A stretch of 64,000 nt of DNA from Candidatus Nomurabacteria bacterium (GTDB lineage: Bacteria; Patescibacteriota; Minisyncoccia; Phycocordibacterales; UBA9973), in NCBI GenBank assembly GCA_016199805.1, contig JACQGC010000004.1, forward strand, positions 19,816-83,815, in the 5' to 3' direction. Positions 16,980 through 59,404 of this stretch are shown one piece after another; positions within the stretch are counted from its first letter, which is position 1, and each line of letters begins with the position of its first letter. The translations under genes were made by a program, and so were the position numbers. A model generated the notes under the pieces. That model had not been told where the DNA came from. It worked only from the letters and a program-made list of their open reading frames with translations, and did not search any database.

Positions 16980-19900
16980 CTATTTCCCCAATATCATCAT
17001 GGCCTTGGTCTTGGGACCAATGAGTCCATCGGACACAAGCCCATGATTCTTCTGCCACTGTTTGATGACAGCGATAGTCTTTGGCCCAATTTTGCCGTCT
17101 AAAACCAAACCGAGTTTCATCGTGTCATTTAGATATCTTTGCAGTTCTTTAGCGGTATCGCCTATACTTCCTAGTTTAAGAGTAGTGAAACCGAAATTAT
17201 ACATCAGCGTAGGATTGATGGCAGAAACATTTATGGTGTTTGTGGTCGCAATCGCAGTTTTGGCGGCAACATTTCCCGAACAAGATTGTCCCGTGGCAGT
17301 ACTAAAGCCCGTGATTCTAGAACCACAACCTGGCATAGATATCGGAGTAGGAGGTGTATAGCTTCCTCCCCCTCCACCACCGCCACTACTTGGCACATAA
17401 ACCAAGGTAAAGTTCGCGGTAATATTTTTATCCGCATCCATAGAAACAGTCATTGGATTAGCTGAAGAGGTGATATCTCCAGACCAATCAGAGAATGCGT
17501 ACCCGGAATTTGGAGTTGCAGTGAGAATGATAGAACTTCCAAAATCATAGTTTGCCTGGTCTGGGTTTTTGGCAACGGTGCCATTGGTGGAGAGAATGGA
17601 TATTATATAGGTGATGATATTATCTTGGATTTGAGTTGTGGCGGAACTCAAGGAAGCAGAACCGGTGCCACTTGCAGAAGAAGGGGTCACTTGGAATTTT
17701 AAATATTGTCCAATATCGGAAGAAGTTAATATATATGTAATAGCGGTTGCGCCACCGATGGCAGTATATGTTCCTCCCGAGGAAGAGGAACGAAGCCATG
17801 CATATGTTGTGCCGGATTCGGGCAAACTATTTGGGTCAGAAAATGCGTATGAACCTGTCAGTGTTTGGCCGATTGTTTTTGTGCCAGAAATGGTGACATT
17901 GGTAGCAGTAGGTAAACCGAAAGATTCTGTCGCTTGAGATTTAATTACATATGATGCTTTGTTCCCTGCTTCGTCTTTAAGTATAACATTAAAGTAATAA
18001 GTGGTGGTGGAAGAAAGACCGGAAACAGGAAGAGTGTTGATGTCTGTGGTGTAAGTGTTGAGTGGTGTGCCATTGGCTTCAATATTGGTCACCGTATCGA
18101 TATTATTGGAAGATGATTGATACACCCTGTATTGTAGAACTCCCTGAGCCGAGACATCGTCTGTGCCTTTAGTCCAATTTAAAGTAAGACTACTTGTAGT
18201 AACACTTGCAGTGGTAATGACGCCACTTGCTCCCGGTGTGGGATTTACTAAATCACCCGCTGAACTAACCGCGACCGGAGCATTTAAACTCGTGGAAATA
18301 TTTCCGTTGGCATCTTTGGCCCAGGCATAAAGAGTTTTTGAGCCATAAGTGGAGAACGTGTAATTGGCAGGAGCACTTCCTGTCCAACCGGCATTTCCTG
18401 CCAAGGGCGCCGTAGGTGACTCAGTCAGAAGATATCCGGTGACGCCAATATCGTCCGTGGCGGTAAAAGAAGATACGGAAACAGTCAATGAACTGGAAGT
18501 AGCGGGAATTGAGAAAGCAGTTACAGTGGGGGCGACATCGTCATACACATATGGTCCTAGGTCCCAATCATAGTTGGCGCGGTCAAGCAATTGAATATTG
18601 GTATAGCTGGCCGGACTCAAACCCACATTGTATGGAACGCCAAGATTTGTCCCGCTATTGATGAGAGAAGAACCGGGGGAAAGTCTGTAATCACTTGTGT
18701 CTGTGTATGTTTTTGTCCACGACAGACCACCATCAGAAGTCGTATGCCCATCGGAATAAATACCTGCCGCGATGGAAGATTGGGTAACAAAAGTTCCTCC
18801 GAGATTTCTTATTTCATCCACAAACCAAATCAATTTTTGGTTTGTCACATTAACGGCATCGGTAAGGTGCCAAAACATTCCTATGTAACCACCTGCGGCG
18901 GCGGCCAATAAATAAGTGTGACGAGCCACTTTACGAATATCGGCTTCAGTACTAAATCCATTCATCGCCCAAGACATTGCTTGCCCGGACAACATATATG
19001 GGTGGATTGATGGCATATACATATACCCCCCACCGGCTGACCGGGCACTGGTAAATGTGGAAGAAATCGTTGGCATATACGCTTCAGCCCCCGCATCGGA
19101 CCATCCTCCTCCATATGCAAAAGAAACTGGAACTGTTCCGATGTTGGATGCAATCCAACCAGCTGAATCTAAAATTTCTTCATCTCTATATGCTGACATC
19201 AGCATATTTACAACGTATGGAAAGGTTGTGCTGGTTTGGTTATCCAATGCCTTCAGACGCACAGGGTCATTCATATTTGTTGTATTGCTGATGGTCCACC
19301 CTTTTCCGGTGGCAGAAAGTCCGACGCATGCATTCGCCACATTGATAGTTTTCTTAAAATCACATAATGTTTTGTCTGTTACTGACCAATCAATCAGAAT
19401 ATTATTTTCTGGGTTACCACTACTAGCCAGACTGAGGGTGTGAGCGGTCCTGTCTATGGTTACTGTATTAGTTCCGGAATTTGTTGTTGATACAGTAAAC
19501 ATAGAAGTTTTGGTGACATCCGAATGAGACCAACTGTGCGAACCAATTTCTATTCCCCTAGCAGGAAGAGATGACAAAATAGTTTTACCTCCGGATGAAA
19601 TTCCTGTAAGATTTGTTAAATACGCCAAGAAAGGGATAGTGTTTGTTCCAAAGGCCGCATCAAATGCATCTGCCAATCCGCTGGAATACGCGGGGATACC
19701 TGCATAATCATCTCCATCAATAGACAAAACAATTTTTACTGCAGGAAAAGGTAAAGCTTTAAAGTTTGGAACCGTAGAATAATTATGTCCTCCATCGGTT
19801 ATGGTTCCACTTCCGGAAAAATTACCAGCTATAAAAGAAGCAGTTGTAACTCTATTATTGCCGAGAATAAGACTATAATCATAATCAATAGTGTTGCCAG

Positions 19901-20549
19901 TGGCAACGGCAACTCCGGCCCCGCCTGTAAAAACTCCCGTGCCATAACCATTTCCTTCAATGATTGAATTGCGAACAGTTGTGATTGCCCCTGTGCCAGC
20001 CATAGAAATTGCCGAACCGGCACATTGGGTAATCAATGAATTGTTTAGAGTCACCGTTGCTGAGTTGGCAACAGACAAACCAATTCCGGCGGCACGGCGT
20101 ATTATTACATTAGATAAAGACAATGAATCGGAAGCTCCAACTGATACGGTCCCTTGAAAATCCAAATACTCCGCCTTGATTCCGGTTCTACCTGTAACCA
20201 TATTTATCGCATAACCACTGGAACCAGGAATAGCCGGAAGTGCTCCGGTATCAGCGACATCATATAGTGTATAAGTTATACCATTTTGGCTAGGAGATAT
20301 TGACTGAGCCCATGAACAACCACGTTTAAACATAACCGTGGCATTCAATCCAGCTGAGGTGTTAGCTTTGGTAATATTTTTCCAGGCCGTTGCAGGAGAT
20401 GTTCCATCTCCTGTATCATTTGCAGCATTGCAGTCAACATAATACGTTGTGCCACCAGCATGAACCATCTTTCCGAAAGAAAACAAAAAGCAACAGAAAA
20501 CCAAAAATACAAATATTTTTTCTGTTTTATTGATTTTAATGCGAAACAT
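16980..20549 (-). CDS. giant secreted protein: right-handed beta-helix + polysaccharide deacetylase (NodB)-like + Ig/FN3-like repeats + C-terminal peptidoglycan-binding domain
   Basis: Signal/TM N-terminus; beta-helix repeats (NSIIEGNGYGTGVF..GNTIDYD..); LSIDGDDY and IGSHSWSHSD NodB-like motifs; C-terminal LNDTMKLGLVLDGKIGPKTIAVIKQWQKNHGLVSDGLIGPKT PG_binding_1-like. Confidence 0.65.
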   Translation of the reverse strand: MFRIKINKTEKIFVFLVFCCFLFSFGKMVHAGGTTYYVDCNAANDTGDGTSPATAWKNITKANTSAGLNATVMFKRGCSWAQSISPSQNGITYTLYDVADTGALPAIPGSSGYAINMVTGRTGIKAEYLDFQGTVSVGASDSLSLSNVIIRRAAGIGLSVANSATVTLNNSLITQCAGSAISMAGTGAITTVRNSIIEGNGYGTGVFTGGAGVAVATGNTIDYDYSLILGNNRVTTASFIAGNFSGSGTITDGGHNYSTVPNFKALPFPAVKIVLSIDGDDYAGIPAYSSGLADAFDAAFGTNTIPFLAYLTNLTGISSGGKTILSSLPARGIEIGSHSWSHSDVTKTSMFTVSTTNSGTNTVTIDRTAHTLSLASSGNPENNILIDWSVTDKTLCDFKKTINVANACVGLSATGKGWTISNTTNMNDPVRLKALDNQTSTTFPYVVNMLMSAYRDEEILDSAGWIASNIGTVPVSFAYGGGWSDAGAEAYMPTISSTFTSARSAGGGYMYMPSIHPYMLSGQAMSWAMNGFSTEADIRKVARHTYLLAAAAGGYIGMFWHLTDAVNVTNQKLIWFVDEIRNLGGTFVTQSSIAAGIYSDGHTTSDGGLSWTKTYTDTSDYRLSPGSSLINSGTNLGVPYNVGLSPASYTNIQLLDRANYDWDLGPYVYDDVAPTVTAFSIPATSSSLTVSVSSFTATDDIGVTGYLLTESPTAPLAGNAGWTGSAPANYTFSTYGSKTLYAWAKDANGNISTSLNAPVAVSSAGDLVNPTPGASGVITTASVTTSSLTLNWTKGTDDVSAQGVLQYRVYQSSSNNIDTVTNIEANGTPLNTYTTDINTLPVSGLSSTTTYYFNVILKDEAGNKASYVIKSQATESFGLPTATNVTISGTKTIGQTLTGSYAFSDPNSLPESGTTYAWLRSSSSGGTYTAIGGATAITYILTSSDIGQYLKFQVTPSSASGTGSASLSSATTQIQDNIITYIISILSTNGTVAKNPDQANYDFGSSIILTATPNSGYAFSDWSGDITSSANPMTVSMDADKNITANFTLVYVPSSGGGGGGGSYTPPTPISMPGCGSRITGFSTATGQSCSGNVAAKTAIATTNTINVSAINPTLMYNFGFTTLKLGSIGDTAKELQRYLNDTMKLGLVLDGKIGPKTIAVIKQWQKNHGLVSDGLIGPKTKAMMILGK

Positions 20550-20553
20550 AATT

Positions 20554-23500
20554 TTATTGCACCAAAGAATACATCAAGGCTTTTGTTTTTTCACCGACGA
20601 CACCGTCTGCAAGCAATCCATGACTTTTTTGCCATTTCATAACAGCGGAAAGTGTTGTTGTGCCAAACTTTCCGTCGAGAACCAACCCGGCTTTTGATGT
20701 ATCATTTAAATATCTTTGCAATTCTTTAACCGCATCTCCCGCACTCCCTTTTTGTAGAGTGACGGTACCTAAATTATATTTTTGGGTACTAGTTGAAGGA
20801 ATTGGTTTTGTGGGTTTTGGCGGAATTGGAGTTGTATCGCCATTTTTAGGAGTGGAAACCGGTTGTGGAGTCGGAATGTCAACAGGAACAGGAGCAGAAA
20901 TAACGCCGGTTGATATTTCATAGACGTGGGCTTGGTACGGAGTAAAGGTGTCGGTAAAACCATTTCCGGAAACAGTTAGGTTTCTATTCTCACCATAAAC
21001 AGACACCAGTGAAGGTGTCGTGCTCCAAGTAAAAGTGACTGGAACAGTTGCATTGGTATTATTGGAAGCAATCAGATATCCTCTGCCACCTGCATATTTC
21101 ACTCTGGTGTGAATACTGCTGTTTGAGCTGAAAGAAAGCAGGTCATTCTTATCAATGGAAGACAAGGCCGGTTGGAGAGAATTGAGTTCTGTGGTTACGG
21201 CTTTGAGGTTGTTGAAATTATCAACTTTGGCCTGACACCACGAGAGCGAACCGGAAGGCGAATGAGCCGCATCGGAACCATCACAGATATACGCCAAAGC
21301 CCCAACACCCAAACTCCAATACACTAGCCCATCGCTCCCCTCGGCAATTGCCATATAGGACATATTGCGAAGTTCCGCTTGGGTCGGCCAGCGACCCTTG
21401 GAAGTAAATTTAAAGAATTGGATGACAGTGGCAACAGGTCTGCTGTTTTGCACGGCATCTTTTGTGATTTTTGTCTGATTAGCCACTAGAGAATAATCAT
21501 AACCGCTAGCTGGTTCTGCTCCGTACAAAGCGTATGGGTCCATGGAAAGCAGGTCAACGGTGTCTCGCCAGTAAGACATTGAGTTTGGAGTATTCCCTGC
21601 GCCAAAAGAAAGACCGATAGGGTCAAGATTTCTCAACTTGTTGTAATAAGTAAACATATCCGGCGCCAAATAAGACACACATTCGTCCATATTGTATTGA
21701 CCGGCAAAACCAGGATATTGGCCCCGAGCAACAATATCGGCATCGCTGAAAGTTTTTAACCAACCATCATCATAAGTACTGGTTGAAAAACAATTGGCGT
21801 TGGAAACAAGAGATATCCCATGTCTCTGTAAAACATTCATCAGCGGAAAGGCAGCGCTGTTTGGCATATTACCCAGCCAATAATTAAACCAGAAATTTAC
21901 CGGCAGTTCAAATAATCGCTTGGTAGAGGTGAGCGTGTTTTCCCAAGTGGTTTCGCTCATTGAGTATCCACCACCGGAATCATACACACCGAGCAAAAAC
22001 TTTGGCTGACCGTTAAATAAAATCTGATTATTTTGATTGAAGGAAATAGGAATGGAATTTCTGACAGAGCCGGAAACTTTGGAAATTCTATAAGACGGAT
22101 ATTCGTACAAAGCTACACTATTTGAACTGCGCAATAATTTAAACCGCGCCAAATAAGTATGGCCATTTGTCATGCTGGAGCCACTTAAAGTAGCTGTAAA
22201 ATCGGCAGATGATGAGTATGATTGGTTTGCAACCACGGAACCGCTGGATTCGTCTGTCAGAGTAATTTCCGGTTTCCAATCGCCAAGCGTTGTCCCAGCC
22301 GGAGGATTTATCTTTACATCAAATTTTATGGTCTGAGACTGGTCGTCAAAAAGAAATCCTTTATAATTTGGATAGAGCATAAATACATCCATGGGTGACT
22401 GATATTCTTCTTGTATCGCCATATCGTCAAACCAAGCCTGACCTGCCGGTTCATTCCAGCTTTCCAAAACAAATTTCACACTTGAAGAATCCTGATTGAT
22501 GACAACATTTTTTAACTCAACATATGTCCAATCATTGACTCCATTCAGACATTTACCCACCCCGTTTCCGGCACTGCCTGCGTTTACACTAATACGAACA
22601 CAGGGATGAATAGTAGTATCAACCAAGTTTGTTTTTATCCAACCGCTGATACGATAAGATCCTTTTTTCAAAGAAAGAGTCTGCCTGGCGGATTCCGTAT
22701 AGGGGAAACTGGGAGCGTCTTTCATACTATAACTACTTGCTCCGCCATGAACTGTAGAAGAATCAACCAGAAAAGCGGACGAACCCGACCAATTTGCCGG
22801 TTTACCACTGGATAATGTTTCAAAACCGGAGTTAAGTAATAAATTTGGACCGAGGCTAGCCATTGGATACCACATCAACCCTCCAGCCACCAATCCATTG
22901 ATTGGAGCAGACGGAGTCGGAGCATTAAATTCCATCATGTCACTTGCGCTACTACAACCTGGGTCATTCGGATAATCTATTTTGCCATCCAAGTCATTAT
23001 CAATGCCATCAGAACATTGTGGAAGGCTTGAATCTGGAAGAACAACGACGGGCGGAGTCGGGGTGCTGACTGGCGGTATATTTGTAGTTGGCAAGGTTGT
23101 CGTTGGAGTTGTCGGATTGTTGTTCGTAGGGGTTGTGGTAGGCGGTGGCGTGTTGCCGGTATTACTAATCATCACGGAAGCATCGTCAAACCAAGCTGTG
23201 CCATTTGGGTCTCCATACATTTCTACAACAAAGTAAGCCGGAGAATCATTGGTGATTGTGACATTCTGCACCTGTAAATATTGCCAGTCGCTGGCACCTT
23301 TTATGATTTGTGATGACTTACATCCATTAACGCAGGCATTTGGGTATACTCCGGTATTAAAATTTATTCTCAAACCACTACCAACCGTTGATGCTACCCC
23401 ATCCATTTTCACCCACATGCCAATATTGTAAACACCCTTTGGAAGGGTGCCGATAGTTTGCATTGCCGACTGGGAATAAGGTATCAAGTTTGCATTAACG

Positions 23501-23805
23501 ATTTTTAAGCTATGCGTTCCCGTGTGGGCCACACTCCCATCAACTGTAAATCCGTTTGCGCTCCAGCTCAGTGGTTTACTGCTGGTATCTGTGTTTTCAA
23601 AACCTCCATTGGTAATATATTCTGTTGTATTCAATACTTGCCCCTGCAGAGAAGAACTGGGAACATTTACAGGATTTGTATTTCTAACTGACACAAAAAT
23701 CACAACACCAATAAAAACAATAAACACAACCAGAGAATAGTGCGTTTTCAAAAAATTTTTTAACATAAATTTTTTAACAAAATTAATTAATAATTGATTT
23801 TTCAA
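20554..23805 (-). CDS. giant secreted protein: two CBM4/9-like carbohydrate-binding modules + central domain + C-terminal peptidoglycan-binding domain
   Basis: N-terminal TM; repeated GFENT..W..NGF..DGS.AHTG..S modules; Thr/Pro linkers; C-terminal SAGDAVKELQRYLNDTSKAGLVLDGKFGTTTLSAVMKWQKSHGLLADGVVGEKT paralogous to the neighbouring gene. Confidence 0.65.
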   Translation of the reverse strand: MKNQLLINFVKKFMLKNFLKTHYSLVVFIVFIGVVIFVSVRNTNPVNVPSSSLQGQVLNTTEYITNGGFENTDTSSKPLSWSANGFTVDGSVAHTGTHSLKIVNANLIPYSQSAMQTIGTLPKGVYNIGMWVKMDGVASTVGSGLRINFNTGVYPNACVNGCKSSQIIKGASDWQYLQVQNVTITNDSPAYFVVEMYGDPNGTAWFDDASVMISNTGNTPPPTTTPTNNNPTTPTTTLPTTNIPPVSTPTPPVVVLPDSSLPQCSDGIDNDLDGKIDYPNDPGCSSASDMMEFNAPTPSAPINGLVAGGLMWYPMASLGPNLLLNSGFETLSSGKPANWSGSSAFLVDSSTVHGGASSYSMKDAPSFPYTESARQTLSLKKGSYRISGWIKTNLVDTTIHPCVRISVNAGSAGNGVGKCLNGVNDWTYVELKNVVINQDSSSVKFVLESWNEPAGQAWFDDMAIQEEYQSPMDVFMLYPNYKGFLFDDQSQTIKFDVKINPPAGTTLGDWKPEITLTDESSGSVVANQSYSSSADFTATLSGSSMTNGHTYLARFKLLRSSNSVALYEYPSYRISKVSGSVRNSIPISFNQNNQILFNGQPKFLLGVYDSGGGYSMSETTWENTLTSTKRLFELPVNFWFNYWLGNMPNSAAFPLMNVLQRHGISLVSNANCFSTSTYDDGWLKTFSDADIVARGQYPGFAGQYNMDECVSYLAPDMFTYYNKLRNLDPIGLSFGAGNTPNSMSYWRDTVDLLSMDPYALYGAEPASGYDYSLVANQTKITKDAVQNSRPVATVIQFFKFTSKGRWPTQAELRNMSYMAIAEGSDGLVYWSLGVGALAYICDGSDAAHSPSGSLSWCQAKVDNFNNLKAVTTELNSLQPALSSIDKNDLLSFSSNSSIHTRVKYAGGRGYLIASNNTNATVPVTFTWSTTPSLVSVYGENRNLTVSGNGFTDTFTPYQAHVYEISTGVISAPVPVDIPTPQPVSTPKNGDTTPIPPKPTKPIPSTSTQKYNLGTVTLQKGSAGDAVKELQRYLNDTSKAGLVLDGKFGTTTLSAVMKWQKSHGLLADGVVGEKTKALMYSLVQ

Positions 23806-23832
23806 TAAAAAAACTCGACCTGTTGGTTCGAG
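23806..23832 (-). terminator. rho-independent terminator downstream of the Com-like gene
   Basis: Minus-strand hairpin CTCGAACC-AACA-GGTCGAG followed by TTTTTTT. Confidence 0.55.
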
Positions 23833-23865
23833 CTTCGCGAGCTTCTCTTGTTAAACTAATCCCTT

Positions 23866-24090
23866 CTACTTATCTGTATCTGGAATCAAACCTTGATTTA
23901 TTAACACCGCACGTTTTCTAATAATCTCTGCATCTGGCCCTTGAAAGAATTGTATATTATGACAATTCCGACATTTTACTTCCAGCATGTTGTCTTTATC
24001 CGTCAGACAACCCTTGCACAAAAGCTTGTCGCATTTATCGCACCGATATTCATTTAGTTCCATATTCCGCATTATACTACACGCAAGCAA
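23866..24090 (-). CDS. Com-like zinc-finger protein (phage Mu Com family-like)
   Basis: YRCDKCDKLLCKG...LEVKCRNCHNIQFF matches the Com CxxC..KLL...CxxC pattern; 74 aa; immediately downstream of a Cys-rich gene. Confidence 0.45.
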   Translation of the reverse strand: MLACSIMRNMELNEYRCDKCDKLLCKGCLTDKDNMLEVKCRNCHNIQFFQGPDAEIIRKRAVLINQGLIPDTDK

Positions 24091-24150
24091 AAAATCTATC
24101 GGAAGAAAAATGCCTGTGGATAACTCAAAAACACTGTTTTGTTGTAAAAA

Positions 24151-25848
24151 TTAGGCAAATTCCTGTTGGTAGCATTTTTCGCAGTAGACCGTCTCGGGTC
24201 TGCCTGGGGCAAAAGAGGTTCTGATTGCCTTGCCACACTTCATACACTGCCGGTCATAAAGTTTTGGCATTTGCAATTTATTAAAACGTGATTTTTCCCG
24301 GCACTTTAGACATCTACTCGGGAGCGGAATGTTCATTTTTCGCAAAAGGTCAAATTCGAGCGAAGCAATTTTGTATTTTCTGTCACAAGTCGTACAAGAA
24401 ATCACTTCTTTTAAGATTGAATCATTCACTTCGCCGATAGTTTCCGGAAAGTCTTCCCCTTTTATTGTCGCTTCCACTTGTTGTTCGGCTTCGTCGTTCC
24501 AAGTGTATCCCGCTTTCAGAGCTTCTTCTTTTGTTTTTGGGAAAAATTTAAAAGCGTTCGAATTGTTGTAAGCGAATTTACTGAAACCGGGCTGAAAAAA
24601 TTCTCCGTAAGGCCAAGCTCTGCCTTGTTCATCTATGTATGGATTATTTTTCATATCTTCAATGATTTTTTCTTTCAAAGCTTCATATTCTTCTTTGGAA
24701 TATTCTTTGTTCAAGATGCAATACGATTTTCTTTTTAGATTCACGCAACCGAAATTGTTTTTTGACGCCGGACACCAAAGACAATACTCGGAATTCAAAA
24801 CATCAGGAAAACAATATGCGGAAAACTTTACGTTGGCGACATTATCCCCCACGCTGGCCGACTCATACAGGAGCTCGGCATTAGCTCCCCAGCCGGAATA
24901 ATCCATGCAATCTTTTACCGGAGAGACGGAAATCATCTGGCACCATTTGCTGTTCTCAACCTTGCTACCAATATATATTTCTTTTGAATTTTTGGAATTA
25001 AACAAATATTCCCCGGTGACATTCAAGTTTAGGGTGTTCCCGGTGTAAAACCGATAGGGGTGTTCCAACCAAAATTTCTCTGCTTCCTTTTTCACTTTTT
25101 CAATTCCGGAACGCGTGTCCAGTTTCATTTCTTTTAATTTTTCCGCGTATTCTTCCTTAGAATATTTAACATTAAAAATACAATTTGAAGCGCCACGTAA
25201 ATTTACACAACCCACGCAATTCATAGAGCTGTAACAGTTGCGGGAAAACCATACATCGGTGCAAGCATCACACTCTTGCGAGTAAAAAACACGATAACAA
25301 TCATTCTGCCCGATACTTTCATAGCATAGTTCTGACTTGAATATGCGCAGAGAATCAGCTGTGTCTTTGGCTGTGTTTAAAATTGAAGAAAAATAAACGT
25401 TCTCACAATAGTCTGCTCCAGTAATCAAAGTACAATTCTTTGAATAAGCCAAGGCATTGCAATAATCACAATTTTTTAGTGTTAAAAAAGTTGATTCCAG
25501 CGCAACGTACGGAACTTTTTCTGACAATTCTTTTACCTGTTCTAGGAATGGTCGTTTTGAATCATAATCCATTGCGGATTCTGTGCCATCCCAATCATCC
25601 GCCCACCAGCATGGCTGACAAAATACTGTAATTTCTTGCTCCGGTGGATACATAGATAGTGTACGCTTGCCACATTTATCGCAATTTCGGTAAAAAAGCG
25701 ACCACCAGTTTATGCATGTAAAACGCCTAATCATCCGGCATTCCGGGCACCAGGTCGGTGCTGGGACTTTTATTTTTTCGTAAAAAGAAAAATCTGACTC
25801 TTCAACAACAAACTCCGATTTACAATTTTGACATGTTTTATTTTCCAT
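24151..25848 (-). CDS. large cysteine-rich protein with N- and C-terminal zinc-ribbon motifs (paralog A)
   Basis: N-term CQNCKSEF..FYEKIKVPAPTWCPECRMIRR, C-term CTTCDRKY..IPLPSRCLKCREKSR ... YCEKCYQQEF; internally duplicated Cys-ladder modules each ending KYSKEEY..LKE; paralog at 57686-59404. Confidence 0.6.
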   Translation of the reverse strand: MENKTCQNCKSEFVVEESDFSFYEKIKVPAPTWCPECRMIRRFTCINWWSLFYRNCDKCGKRTLSMYPPEQEITVFCQPCWWADDWDGTESAMDYDSKRPFLEQVKELSEKVPYVALESTFLTLKNCDYCNALAYSKNCTLITGADYCENVYFSSILNTAKDTADSLRIFKSELCYESIGQNDCYRVFYSQECDACTDVWFSRNCYSSMNCVGCVNLRGASNCIFNVKYSKEEYAEKLKEMKLDTRSGIEKVKKEAEKFWLEHPYRFYTGNTLNLNVTGEYLFNSKNSKEIYIGSKVENSKWCQMISVSPVKDCMDYSGWGANAELLYESASVGDNVANVKFSAYCFPDVLNSEYCLWCPASKNNFGCVNLKRKSYCILNKEYSKEEYEALKEKIIEDMKNNPYIDEQGRAWPYGEFFQPGFSKFAYNNSNAFKFFPKTKEEALKAGYTWNDEAEQQVEATIKGEDFPETIGEVNDSILKEVISCTTCDRKYKIASLEFDLLRKMNIPLPSRCLKCREKSRFNKLQMPKLYDRQCMKCGKAIRTSFAPGRPETVYCEKCYQQEFA

Positions 25849-25922: not shown

Positions 25923-26717
25923 TTATTTTATCACTTTTTCAAACTCCTTCGGAATTTTAGATTCTATTTTTACTGTTTTGCCTTTCATATCTTTAAATTC
26001 TATGGATTTGGCATGCAGAAACATGCGGATTCCTTTTTTTTCCTCCCCTGCGAAGGGGAGGCGTAGGAGGGGTGAACTTTTTGGATTATAAAGCGCATCT
26101 CCCGCCACCGGATGATTTAAAAATTTCATATGCACGCGAATTTGATGTGTCCGACCGGTTTTTGGTTTTAGTTCCAAATAGGTAAATTTCCTCCCCTCCT
26201 TATTGAGGAGGGGCTTCGGGGTGGTGATTTCTAATCTCTTGAGTACTTTGTATTCCGTAATCGCCTCCCGCATCTCTCCCCTAGCGCCGCGACCTGCCAA
26301 GCGGCGGCGAAAATCCGAAGGACTGCGGCCAATGGGTTTGTTTATCACTCCGCGGTCTTCTTTTACCCAACCGTCTACAATAGCTACATAAGTTTTTTTA
26401 ATATCTCTGCCCATAAATTGATTTTTTAAAAACTCATGCGCTTTTTGGTTTTTTGCCAAAAGCATTACTCCGGAAGTTCCGCGGTCCAGTCTGTGAACAA
26501 TGCCCGGCCGGTCTATTTCCCCCATCGGCTCCCCTACACCTTTCATTTTCGGATAATTTTTGATTATCCAACTAGTGATAAAAGTTTCTTTTTTTTTGCC
26601 ATCAGCGCCTGCCCCGTAGTGAGCTTGCTCTACTGCGGGGTGCACAGAAATGCCCCAAGGCTTTTCAATGGCCAAAATGTCTTTATCTTCGTATAAAACT
26701 TTGATTTTCATATGCAT
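25923..26717 (-). CDS. RluA-family pseudouridine synthase
   Basis: PGIVHRLDRGTSGVMLLAKN catalytic motif; carries two in-frame palindromic-element insertions. Confidence 0.85.
   Translation of the reverse strand: MHMKIKVLYEDKDILAIEKPWGISVHPAVEQAHYGAGADGKKKETFITSWIIKNYPKMKGVGEPMGEIDRPGIVHRLDRGTSGVMLLAKNQKAHEFLKNQFMGRDIKKTYVAIVDGWVKEDRGVINKPIGRSPSDFRRRLAGRGARGEMREAITEYKVLKRLEITTPKPLLNKEGRKFTYLELKPKTGRTHQIRVHMKFLNHPVAGDALYNPKSSPLLRLPFAGEEKKGIRMFLHAKSIEFKDMKGKTVKIESKIPKEFEKVIK
26038..26076. repeat. palindromic element copy inserted in-frame in the RluA-family gene
   Basis: cctcccct-gcga-aggggagg followed by aggaggggtgaac; encodes ..SSPLLRLPFAGEEKKG.. Confidence 0.6.
26189..26228. repeat. second palindromic element copy inserted in-frame in the RluA-family gene
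   Basis: cccctcct-tattg-aggagggg followed by cttcggggtggtga; encodes ..TPKPLLNKEGRKF.. Confidence 0.6.
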
Positions 26718-26803: not shown

Positions 26804-27514
26804 ATGAGGAATAAATTGTTCTTTCTGACAATCATCGTCATGCTCATGACGCTGGTTAACGGCCCTGTGAGGGCCAGCGTAATATATGTTGGAATCGAAG
26901 ACACTGCCCTCCCGGGCGGCGACAAAGATTACCAAGACATCATCCTCACAATTTCCGGCGCCACATTGGCCGGAAATTACGGATGGAAACCCATGGTCGC
27001 TCCAAATTACGACGGTGTTCCGTATTTCGACGGCGCCTCGTATGACGGGCCACACATGGGATTCATGGACTTCGCGCTCGGCACCGGCGGCTTTGCCGGA
27101 AACCCGACGAGTCCACACCTGACACTCGCAACAACCAAGTTCTGGGGATCAACAACAGGAAGCTACGATGCCTCCACTCACTTCACCAGCAATGGTGCGG
27201 TGGACGAGAACGTGCTGATTGAAGTGTCTGCCTGGTCTGGACAAAACACCTTGGGCTGGGCCAATACCGCATCGCTTTGGTTGGTCAACTCTCTCTCCGC
27301 CGATGCCGGCGGAAGTGTGTCATTCCGTCCGGGGAGTGATTTTGTACTTGTGTTTAGTTCTCCCGGTGGAAACATGAACCAGAAATGCGACGGTGAGCAG
27401 TTCGCATTTTTGGAGTCAGACTCGGCCCCCGAACCGGCCTCCATGGCGCTCATCGGCGGCGGGTTGCTGGGCCTCGGTTTCTGGAGGCGCCGAAAGAAAC
27501 AAGCGAAGCAGTAA
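26804..27514 (+). CDS. PEP-CTERM sorting-domain protein (secreted, Gly/Ala-rich), high GC
   Basis: N-terminal signal peptide; C-terminal DSAPEPASMALIGGGLLGLGFWRRRKK (PEP motif, TM helix, basic tail). Confidence 0.7.
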   Translation: MRNKLFFLTIIVMLMTLVNGPVRASVIYVGIEDTALPGGDKDYQDIILTISGATLAGNYGWKPMVAPNYDGVPYFDGASYDGPHMGFMDFALGTGGFAGNPTSPHLTLATTKFWGSTTGSYDASTHFTSNGAVDENVLIEVSAWSGQNTLGWANTASLWLVNSLSADAGGSVSFRPGSDFVLVFSSPGGNMNQKCDGEQFAFLESDSAPEPASMALIGGGLLGLGFWRRRKKQAKQ

Positions 27515-57685: not shown

Positions 57686-59404
57686 CTAGTAAACCTCCTG
57701 CTGATAACACTTCTCACAATAAACAATCTCCGGTCGTTCGGGAGCATAGGAAGTTTCAAACTCATTAGCACAGCCGGGTTTCATACACTGTCTATGCCAA
57801 AGTTTGGGCGGATTTCGTTGTTCTATTCTTTGAATATGTCGACAATTGGGACATAAGTGTGGAATGGGTAAATTTATTCTTTTATAAAATTGAAATTCTG
57901 ATGCAGTAATTTTAAATGCTTCTGTGCATTGTTCTTTGCATTCACCTTGGTGCTCACATTCTATAACTTTTCCTATGATACTTTCATTCACATCCAACAA
58001 ATTATCGGGAATATCTTCATTTTTTATGTCTATTTTATAATTTCTTTCAATTCTGTCTTTCCATTTATATCCCTGTTTCAATGCCTCTCTTTTAGTTAGG
58101 GGGAAATATTCTTGAGCTTGAGTTTCATTGTAAGCAAAAAAGGATAATTCTATTGGAAAAAATTCTCCGTATTTATATATCCTACCGTTGTTGTCTATAT
58201 AAGGCATTTTCATCATTTGTTCTTTTATTTTTCCAAGTATTTCAAAATATTCTTTCTCGGAATACTGCTTATTTAAAATGTAAAATTTGGCATTAGTAAG
58301 CCCCACACAACCAAAACAATTTGAGCAGTTTTTAAGAATAAAAGAATACTCACATTCTCGGCACCCTTCTATGGTGATGTAACAGAAAAAATCCTTAAAA
58401 GTATTGCCGGTTGGAGCCATTCCTTCATAAATGAGTTCCCCTGTAGCAAGCCCTGAGCTATCAAAAACATCTTTTGATTTAATCACTCTGTAGCTATAAG
58501 CGACATTTTCGGAATCAATGGTGTTAAAAGACCTTTTTATATTTCTTGAATTGTGAATATAATCACCGGTCGCATTTTGTGAAGCATAAATTGATGCATA
58601 TTTATGAATCGATTTTTCTTTAGTCAATAATTCAAATTCTTTCTTCGCTTTTTCTATTCCTGCATGTGTTTCCAAGTAATATTCTTTTAGTTTTTTGAAA
58701 TATTCTTCTTTTGATAATTTTATATTATTAAAATAATATTGTTGATTTCTTAAGTTTGAAGATAGAAAACAATTTTGACAATTTTTACAATCATATAGGA
58801 AATAAGAATCAATGCAGTTGTTGGATTTTATTGCGTAGTGGGTATTGTAATTCAACTCGCAGTCAATATTTTGATAGCAATTATCCAATTTATTAACAGC
58901 TAGACAATCTAAACTATTTTTTGAATTATCAATATTTTCGGAATATGAAACATCCTCGCAGTAAATAACAGAATAAGACAAATAACAATTCTTATCATCT
59001 ATGGCAAAATTTATAAACTCGGAATTTATTAGATTGCCGAATTTATAGGCATAGAAACGAGGATTTATTTTAAGCAATTCACTTAGCTGTTCAAAAAAGG
59101 TTTTGGAAAAATCATATTCTTTTGCATTCACAAATTGATCCCAATTTCCCCCATAATAACATTCAGTGCAATAAACAGGTGCAGTATCTTTGTCGGAATA
59201 CATTGAAATAAGAGACTTTTCACATAAACCACAAGACCTCTTATATAGAGAGCGCACGTTTCGCCATGCCATTCTTCGTATCAACCTGCACTCCGGGCAA
59301 AAAGTCGGCGGAGGAACTTTGATTTTTTCATAGAAATTGAAGTCTTCCGGCTCTATGGTGAAGTCTTTCTTACAGTTTTGGCATATTTTGGTTTCAGAAT
59401 CCAT
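57686..59404 (-). CDS. large cysteine-rich protein with N- and C-terminal zinc-ribbon motifs (paralog B)
   Basis: N-term CQNCKKDF..FYEKIKVPPPTFCPECRLIRR; C-term ..IPIPHLCPNCRHIQR...YCEKCYQQEVY; same architecture as 24151-25848. Confidence 0.6.
   Translation of the reverse strand: MDSETKICQNCKKDFTIEPEDFNFYEKIKVPPPTFCPECRLIRRMAWRNVRSLYKRSCGLCEKSLISMYSDKDTAPVYCTECYYGGNWDQFVNAKEYDFSKTFFEQLSELLKINPRFYAYKFGNLINSEFINFAIDDKNCYLSYSVIYCEDVSYSENIDNSKNSLDCLAVNKLDNCYQNIDCELNYNTHYAIKSNNCIDSYFLYDCKNCQNCFLSSNLRNQQYYFNNIKLSKEEYFKKLKEYYLETHAGIEKAKKEFELLTKEKSIHKYASIYASQNATGDYIHNSRNIKRSFNTIDSENVAYSYRVIKSKDVFDSSGLATGELIYEGMAPTGNTFKDFFCYITIEGCRECEYSFILKNCSNCFGCVGLTNAKFYILNKQYSEKEYFEILGKIKEQMMKMPYIDNNGRIYKYGEFFPIELSFFAYNETQAQEYFPLTKREALKQGYKWKDRIERNYKIDIKNEDIPDNLLDVNESIIGKVIECEHQGECKEQCTEAFKITASEFQFYKRINLPIPHLCPNCRHIQRIEQRNPPKLWHRQCMKPGCANEFETSYAPERPEIVYCEKCYQQEVY

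Follow-up and report, generated by a model that had tools for sequence, protein, structure and literature searches.

Zinc-ribbon/predicted beta-solenoid proteins of a Candidatus Nomurabacteria genome belong to a large Paceibacteria family encoded in many genomes beside VirD4-like ATPases

Two cysteine-rich proteins of about 570 amino acids (aa), encoded some distance apart in a 64,000-nucleotide stretch of a Candidatus Nomurabacteria bacterium genome (assembly GCA_016199805.1, contig JACQGC010000004.1, positions 19,816 to 83,815; the whole stretch is called the window here), raise the question of what kind of proteins they are and what they act with. Paralog A (565 aa, of the A-type orthogroup) is encoded at 24151..25848 and paralog B (572 aa, of the B-type orthogroup) at 57686..59404, both on the minus strand, as an earlier reading made from the sequence alone, without database searches (the sequence-only reading), had listed them. 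The open reading frame (ORF) list, homology, and an AlphaFold2 (AF2) model place A in a family in which zinc ribbons flank a double beta-solenoid, and B, which is 100% identical to NCBI HY311_00800, "hypothetical protein [Candidatus Nomurabacteria bacterium]," belongs to the same family. This family is almost confined to Paceibacteria/Parcubacteria-type bacteria of the candidate phyla radiation (CPR), and its dominant neighbors in the arrays that many of these genomes carry are VirD4-like ATPases, with which it may act.

A and B are 40% identical over their full lengths (BLASTP E=2e-134). The first ~80 aa of A align with its own last ~80 aa (30% identity, E=1e-17), and its two internal modules, which end in KYSKEEY and EYSKEEY, align with each other (E=2e-11). 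The architecture that had been read from the letters, a paralogous pair with an N-terminal ribbon echoed at the C terminus and two internal modules with YSKEEY-type endings, is thereby borne out. A contains 36 Cys residues (6.4%) and B contains 32; A has an overall isoelectric point (pI) of 5.6 and neither a membrane segment nor a signal peptide. At least 4,478 homologs were found for A and at least 7,636 for B, the latter counted as clusters at 90% identity. Searching 1.84 billion cluster representatives with a profile retrieved 5,129 clusters at 50% identity (E<=1e-3), 2,082 of them at E<=1e-30, and nearly all are 540 to 600 aa long and matched end to end. The best matches of A, 64 to 80% identical, are "hypothetical protein" entries from Paceibacterota/Nomurabacteria, and those family members that are named belong to Paceibacterota, Nomurabacteria, and other Patescibacteria. 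In GTDB species genomes, the family is encoded at 575 loci or more; 80 of them were kept, and all GTDB neighborhood counts given here refer to these 80, among whose titles the informative ones point to Nomura-, Staskawicz-, Jorgensen-, Giovannoni-, Lipton-, Niyogi-, and Sungii-bacteria (single loci are cited below by L numbers). An origin from phages or mobile elements was considered for the family and rejected, as 2.9 million viral contigs yielded one fragmentary match.

The sequence-only reading had not recognized the large-protein family, and the searches agree with it. The core of A and B was matched by no model in Pfam, NCBIfam, and PADLOC scans, and the names given to family members are solely "hypothetical" or "uncharacterized," except for one domain label for a CxxC-x17-CxxC finger. 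The literature on PF13451, on tandem zinc ribbons of Patescibacteria, and on CPR coupling proteins with DnaK does not describe the family. No curated model, solved structure, or paper describing either the family or the gene cassette set out below was found, and we regard both as new. They are new in kind because the architecture and the gene neighborhood are unfamiliar, though zinc ribbons and the beta-solenoid are known parts.

Each end of A carries a pair of zinc ribbons. The N-terminal pair (residues 1-85; 25594..25848, minus strand) comprises site 1 (C6/C9/C34/C37) and site 2 (C56/C59/C77/C80), and the C-terminal pair (residues 481-565; 24154..24408, minus strand) comprises site 3 (C485/C488/C513/C516) and site 4 (C535/C538/C556/C559). 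Site 1 has the spacing CxxC-x24-CxxC, which is zf_Tbcl-like, and sites 2 and 4 have the spacing CxxC-x17-CxxC; in B, the first knuckle of site 4 is Cx4C. The 16 terminal Cys residues of A make up four Cys4 sites and are all invariant among 45 close relatives. Among 135 diverse members, sites 1 and 4 occur in nearly all, site 2 is whole in 72 and wholly missing in 62 to 63 (phi 0.99-1.0), and site 3 is kept or lost as a unit (phi 0.78-0.94), with about a fifth of the members lacking it. Because each Cys4 site is kept or lost whole (phi 0.78-1.0), the termini are presumably metal sites, most naturally for zinc, and the inner fingers (sites 2 and 3), which are lost as complete units in many members, appear to be dispensable. 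Zinc binding to the CxxC-x17-CxxC domain has been demonstrated by experiment in small proteins of Methanosarcina (M. mazei) (PMC12704099). Matches of A to curated models are borderline: residues 5-41 match Pfam zf_Tbcl with 18 bits, the C terminus scores 26.1 bits with zf_Tbcl_2 (PF23477), whose gathering score is 27, and the score for TIGR04272 is 19.6 bits against a cut-off of 36. About 15 close homologs carry a precomputed PF23477 match, and B matched neither PF23477 nor TIGR04272 in the Pfam and NCBIfam scans. In addition, phage models in BFVD labeled "putative zinc-ribbon domain" superpose on the C-terminal pair at 0.6 to 0.8 A over 36 to 43 residues. The two ends differ in charge, the C-terminal pair being basic (net +9, pI 9.3) and the N-terminal pair neutral. 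With the invariant Cys4 sites and these matches, the view of the termini as zinc-ribbon modules stands.

The part between the ribbons was modeled with AF2 on an alignment of 135 diverse representatives, which gave a predicted local distance difference test (pLDDT) score of 94.2 and a predicted template modeling (pTM) score of 0.92 for A; in an earlier model built on 45 close relatives, the repeats reached a pLDDT of only 60 to 70, and Foldseek returned no matches for it. In the later model, the ribbon pairs span residues 1-82 and 482-565, and a helix joins the first of them to beta-solenoid 1 (residues 125-228; 25165..25476, minus strand), which is predicted to have ~8 to 9 coils of 12 residues with the DSSP pattern "EEEE--E--E--" (pLDDT 83-97) and a register in which Cys or Ser occupies positions 3, 6, 9, and 12 and Asn or Asp occupies positions 2 and 8. 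Module 1 is closed by a "YSKEEY" cap, a motif conserved among close relatives, and two helices (residues 229-262; 25063..25164, minus strand; helices 231-241 and 246-261). Beta module 2 (residues 263-380; 24709..25062, minus strand; strands 275-378, with the module at 275-380 in the model) is homologous to module 1 and ends in NKEYSKEEY, with a cap helix at residues 385-401. The block that follows (residues 381-480; 24409..24708, minus strand) is the most conserved in the family, with invariant and near-invariant alignment columns, a pLDDT of 91 to 98, and the motif PYxDxxGRxxxYGEFFP...F.YN.S.A..FFP.TK..A...GY.W; it is alpha/beta (402-480) and acidic (net -8). A 9-residue repeat, suggested by the Cys spacing, was also considered for the middle and rejected, as the confident model and the register table give a 12-residue coil.

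The sequence-only reading had seen in the middle a multi-zinc or disulfide-bonded Cys ladder on a beta-solenoid, and only the solenoid is retained, as a prediction of high confidence. Across the 135 diverse members, the ladder Cys residues are 16 to 88% conserved, interchange with Ser, and show pairwise phi values of at most 0.4. Since they are neither conserved nor covarying, they appear to be interior packing residues rather than metal ligands or obligate disulfides, and the Cys/Ser register fits small residues filling a very narrow solenoid. For genome annotation, the density of Cys here thus does not indicate a ladder of iron-sulfur, zinc, or disulfide type. A sequence search of the PDB with the solenoid alone gave no match, and one with the family profile gave weak LIM-domain matches alone (CRP LIM, E about 1e-3). 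The best Foldseek matches in PDB and BFVD are generic beta-helices (E>=2e-4, TM<=0.25). The profile and structure searches that had been proposed for the pair therefore place the large proteins in no well-characterized family; what they add is a generic beta-helix likeness and the borderline terminal fingers.

Family members are commonly clustered. Two or more copies lie within about 14 kb at 49 of the 80 GTDB loci, with a maximum of seven (L027), and the copies of an array run head to tail on one strand with gaps of 1 to 32 nt in called genes. Paralogs of the same array are 31 to 60% identical (median, 43%), and 94% of array copies are closer to a copy in another genome than to their own neighbors, for which reason recent gene amplification was rejected. 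The arrays are ancient, and A and B are two of the old orthogroups, whose members occur both dispersed and within arrays (arrays at L015, L076, L045, and L073). Genes of DsbA, VKOR, and DsbB type lie within a few kilobases of some arrays (L003, 8447-9166; L004, 464-883 and 11153-11710); because the ladder Cys residues carry no pairing signal, this proximity is probably coincidental.

When all ORFs flanking the arrays were clustered, the dominant neighbor was a P-loop ATPase of the FtsK-HerA superfamily, found within 6 kb on the same strand at 31 of the 80 GTDB loci, where it adjoins the arrays. It occurs in two paralogous forms of ~500 aa and ~650 to 800 aa, which are 43% identical, have no membrane segment, and match TrwB_AAD_bind (E down to 1.7e-15), TraG-D_C, T4SS-DNA_transf, and DUF87. 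The short form is 60 to 90% identical between species. The long form carries a CxxC-x17-CxxC finger that exceeds the gathering score of zf_Tbcl_2 (49 bits) and, behind it, a Lys/Glu-rich tail; the same finger type is found in the zinc-ribbon/beta-solenoid family. In one locus (L032, 10645-12747), the end of the long ATPase is masked (N in the DNA, X in the translation), so that its C-terminal tail is incomplete. The association was also examined in the reverse direction in an independent collection, in which 80 metagenome loci were fetched with an ATPase query and the 53 of at least 9 kb were counted, and a family member was present within 8 kb of the ATPase in 41 of these 53.

Two layouts recur. 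In the first, found on one strand in Nomurabacteria-like contigs (L089, L090, L094, L102-L105, and L133), dnaK is followed by an ATPase of ~700 aa, one to three family genes, an ATPase of ~500 aa, and dnaJ. In the second (L109, L113, L114, L120, L134, L137, L139, L140, L153, L155, L162, and L165-L168), an ATPase of ~490 aa, a variable number of family genes, and an ATPase of ~650 aa are preceded by a module consisting of a 345-aa protein with Sigma70_r4 and HARE-HTH domains, MEM449 (a protein of ~449 aa that has a hydrophobic anchor at its N terminus and is unmatched in Pfam), and, in most cases, TM178 (a single-pass membrane protein of ~178 aa). The most distant ATPase loci, which hold no family copies, keep most of this wider module, with TM178 missing from its usual place.

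From this neighborhood, we tentatively propose, at somewhat less than an even chance, that the family acts with the VirD4-like ATPase module as a putative adaptor, nucleic-acid-binding partner, or cargo. The rigid solenoid would provide spacing or a scaffold, the zinc-ribbon pairs at its two ends, one neutral and one basic, would bind nucleic acid and/or the ATPase, and each paralog would be a distinct adaptor, substrate-presenting partner, or cargo of a membrane-associated translocation motor. Dispersed copies such as those of the window, rluD-A and uvrC-B-trmH, would belong to this set but be encoded outside the cassette. A wider proposal, possible but distinctly doubtful, is that the family supplies the partners that the orphan VirD4-like ATPases have so far lacked and that the two together form a putative, undescribed Paceibacteria machine for membrane-associated translocation. 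Further components would be the Sigma70_r4/HARE-HTH DNA-binding protein, MEM449, TM178, and the two soluble coupling-type ATPases, and the ancient paralogs would be a fixed repertoire of specificity adaptors or cargo. Such a machine might serve, for example, DNA or nucleoprotein uptake or export, or host interaction.

Several observations weigh against a partnership with the ATPases. Neither a type IV coupling protein (T4CP)-like ATPase nor MEM449 was found in the 64-kb window, where A and B lie outside any ATPase cassette, and the ATPases themselves score far below the curated cut-offs for the true TraD/VirD4 coupling proteins of conjugation. The neighborhood counts overstate the independent support, because related genomes have inherited part of their gene order in common. 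Finally, the conserved context of A-type genes between rluD and rplS, described next, suits a role in RNA or ribosome metabolism equally well.

In the window, A is preceded by a gene for an RluA/RluD-type pseudouridine synthase (25923..26717, minus strand; PF00849, E=7e-29), which is a conserved upstream neighbor of A-type orthologs. At 9 of the 15 loci with an A-type ortholog, the order is rluD, zero to two extra copies, the A-type gene, and the gene for L19 (rplS), with a gap of 4 nt in L001. B is flanked by uvrC on one side and a SpoU/TrmH methyltransferase gene on the other, and one B-type homolog elsewhere has RuvX/YqgF and tRNA_bind genes on its two sides. Ribosomal and RNA-binding proteins commonly contain zinc ribbons. 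Taken with the basic C-terminal pair, these contexts would fit RNA- or ribosome-associated factors whose ribbon pairs bind rRNA or tRNA and whose paralogs, with no involvement of the ATPase, take part in making ribosomes or modifying RNA. We judge this rather unlikely: most copies lie in ATPase arrays rather than beside RNA genes, the B contexts differ among genomes, no RNA-binding domain model matches, and neighbors with functions in translation are expected by chance because such genes dominate CPR genomes.

The partnership with the ATPases, which we prefer, leaves the family as adaptor or as cargo, and a more specific form of the latter holds that the paralogs are recruited by the VirD4-like ATPases and exported, for example by CPR type IV secretion, to act on a host cell. 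Canonical coupling proteins recruit substrates, and the adjacency of the paralog arrays to the ATPases, the neighboring membrane proteins, and the positively charged C terminus accord with such a role. Exported cargo is nevertheless unlikely in view of the strong conservation of orthologs (64 to 80% for the A type) and the age of the arrays, which are unlike those of fast-evolving effectors, and of the lack of a signal peptide or membrane segment. A protein with four zinc-stabilized modules and a rigid solenoid would also be a poor substrate for secretion in the unfolded state. Moreover, of 5,713 VirD4-like genes (T4CP homologs) in CPR genomes, just 148 lie near virB4 (10.1101/2025.01.22.634366); that study raised possible exaptation of these genes and makes no mention of zinc-ribbon/beta-solenoid neighbors.

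The ATPases also match, weakly, the PADLOC model mad8 (E=3e-16) and HerA models, and diversified multicopy neighbors are typical of antiphage and other conflict systems, in which the family would supply sensor or effector paralogs to HerA-like ATPases. This is very improbable. A, B, and the small zinc-ribbon protein encoded next to A have no PADLOC match, the family has no nuclease or toxin domain and is practically absent from viral contigs, and its paralogs are ancient and orthologous across genomes. The ATPase is 60 to 90% identical across species, and the cassette sits at fixed core-genome sites, such as that between dnaK and dnaJ, with a syntenic presence across Paceibacteria that is supported within the samples examined.

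Directly downstream of A, on the same strand and with a gap of 60 nt, lies the small Com-like gene to which the sequence-only reading had linked it (23866..24090, minus strand; NCBI HY311_00590, 65 aa). The longest frame begins with TTG 60 nt past the stop of A and has 74 codons, and the start is likely to be one of two ATG codons, at 24072 (68 aa) or at 24063 (65 aa). The protein matches Pfam Zn_ribbon_Com (PF10122) with 20.5 bits (E=3.4e-4; gathering score, 22.9). Its 15 homologs in Patescibacteria are 58 to 72% identical, 5 of the 15 carry a precomputed PF10122 match, and NCBI gives one of them the name "Com family." C8, C11, C31, and C34 are invariant in this family, and a C-terminal tail, DAEII..RSVLI.QGLIPDTD, is conserved. 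Three homologs in other genomes (L006, 4001-4219; L007, 4001-4228; L008, 4001-4264) are encoded beside pilB/pilC (T2SSE/T2SSF), an N_methyl pilin gene, or genes for giant proteins; in the window, the Com-like gene is followed by genes for two surface proteins of >1,000 aa with PG_binding_1 domains (20554-23805 and 16980-20549). The Com-like protein may thus be a regulator of surface or pilus genes. No Mu-like prophage, other phage genes, or downstream mom-type gene was found around it, and its presence should not be annotated as evidence of a prophage.

A terminator had also been claimed to close the pair. After the Com-like gene, at about 23803..23836 on the minus strand, there is a terminator-like hairpin with a stem of ~11 bp (-12 to -14 kcal/mol) and a run of seven U residues. 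A simple terminator scan missed it because the stem is bulged, and the 76-nt fold is no better than shuffled sequences (z = -0.7), so that a terminator here is plausible but weak. The adjacency of the two genes, their common strand, and this hairpin are what would speak for joining the two genes in one unit, with the Com-like finger as regulator or partner of the large protein. We consider such a unit scarcely credible, since a hidden Markov model of the Com-like family found no copy in 1.9 Mb of sequence from 166 other loci with family members or ATPase partners, A orthologs precede rplS instead, the homologs of the Com-like gene elsewhere adjoin pilus or large surface-protein genes, and a putative TATAAT-like box, seen on inspection, lies immediately upstream of the Com-like start. 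The Com-like gene is a real, conserved gene with a family of its own and a chance neighbor of A. The pairing noted by the sequence-only reading is therefore conserved at none of these loci, and the catalogue of contexts for which it had called yields, in its place, the arrays with ATPases and the rluD-A-rplS order; its other premise, that the large proteins belong to no well-characterized family, stands.

The genes surrounding A and B are ordinary housekeeping genes, including those for uvrA, uvrC, fpg, the RluD-type pseudouridine synthase, the SpoU methylase, and tRNAs, and Rfam and tRNA scans of the window found nothing relevant near A, B, or the Com-like gene. On the plus strand, positions 26804-27514 encode a 236-aa protein with a C-terminal PEP-CTERM motif (PF07589, 29 bits against a gathering score of 20.7), which is unexpected for a Patescibacteria genome; PEP-CTERM/exosortase systems are typical of diderm bacteria.

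CPR genomes are tiny, yet in many Paceibacteria this 570-aa protein is maintained in two to seven copies or more, and one array alone can exceed 1% of the coding capacity. This copy number, together with the conservation of the paralog lineages across species, points to an important, lineage-specific, and wholly unannotated cell function, although the surprise is tempered by the fact that conserved families of unknown function are common in CPR genomes. The link to the ATPases provides a handle on the puzzle of the thousands of CPR coupling-protein homologs that lie far from virB4. In addition, the predicted core, two solenoids with 12-residue coils in a protein with four zinc ribbons, finds no significant counterpart in solved structures and would be a new architecture.

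Compared with known systems, each end of A and B corresponds to one two-finger unit of the zf_Tbcl (PF13451), zf_Tbcl_2 (PF23477), and TIGR04272 proteins, with matching spacings. Known proteins of the zf_Tbcl type, which have no assigned function, are small and stand alone or form tails, whereas A and B have such a unit on either side of a core of 400 residues without known relatives. LIM domains, with two contiguous fingers (C-x2-C-x16-23-H-x2-C-x2-C-x2-C-x16-21-C-x2-(C/H/D)), were rejected as a comparison, since the fingers here are 18 residues apart with all-Cys ligands and no Pfam LIM match was obtained.

The beetle antifreeze protein TmAFP is a Cys-rich beta-helix with 12-residue coils. 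The solenoid resembles it in the length of the coil and in the small inward residues (Cys, Ser, or Ala) at every third position. It differs in that the Cys residues of the family are variable and show no pairwise covariation, that the family is cytoplasmic, and that no TxT ice-binding face was seen; neither sequence searches nor Foldseek matched TmAFP to the family. The best Foldseek matches to the solenoid in the PDB are left-handed beta-helices built of hexapeptides (GlmU, LpxA, LpxD, and gamma-carbonic anhydrase), and these matches reach E values of 1.6e-3 to 5e-2, a Foldseek probability of <=0.35, and a TM score of <=0.25. A hexapeptide-repeat left-handed helix was rejected for the family, since the coils of those proteins have 18 residues versus 12 here and no Pfam Hexapep match was obtained.

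With Com of phage Mu (PF10122), which is encoded upstream of mom and activates mom translation, the Com-like protein of the window shares its size and a four-Cys zinc ribbon; it differs in being encoded by a chromosomal gene of Patescibacteria, with no mom gene or prophage, and in having an additional conserved C-terminal tail. The flanking ATPases resemble VirD4, TraD, TrwB, and HerA in their matches to TrwB_AAD_bind, TraG-D_C, T4SS-DNA_transf, and DUF87. In contrast to conjugative VirD4/TraD proteins, the coupling-protein homologs of CPR bacteria are mostly encoded away from virB4 (10.1101/2025.01.22.634366). Those that flank the arrays further differ from VirD4, TraD, and TrwB in lacking the N-terminal membrane domain and in forming a paralogous pair, one member of which bears a CxxC-x17-CxxC finger.

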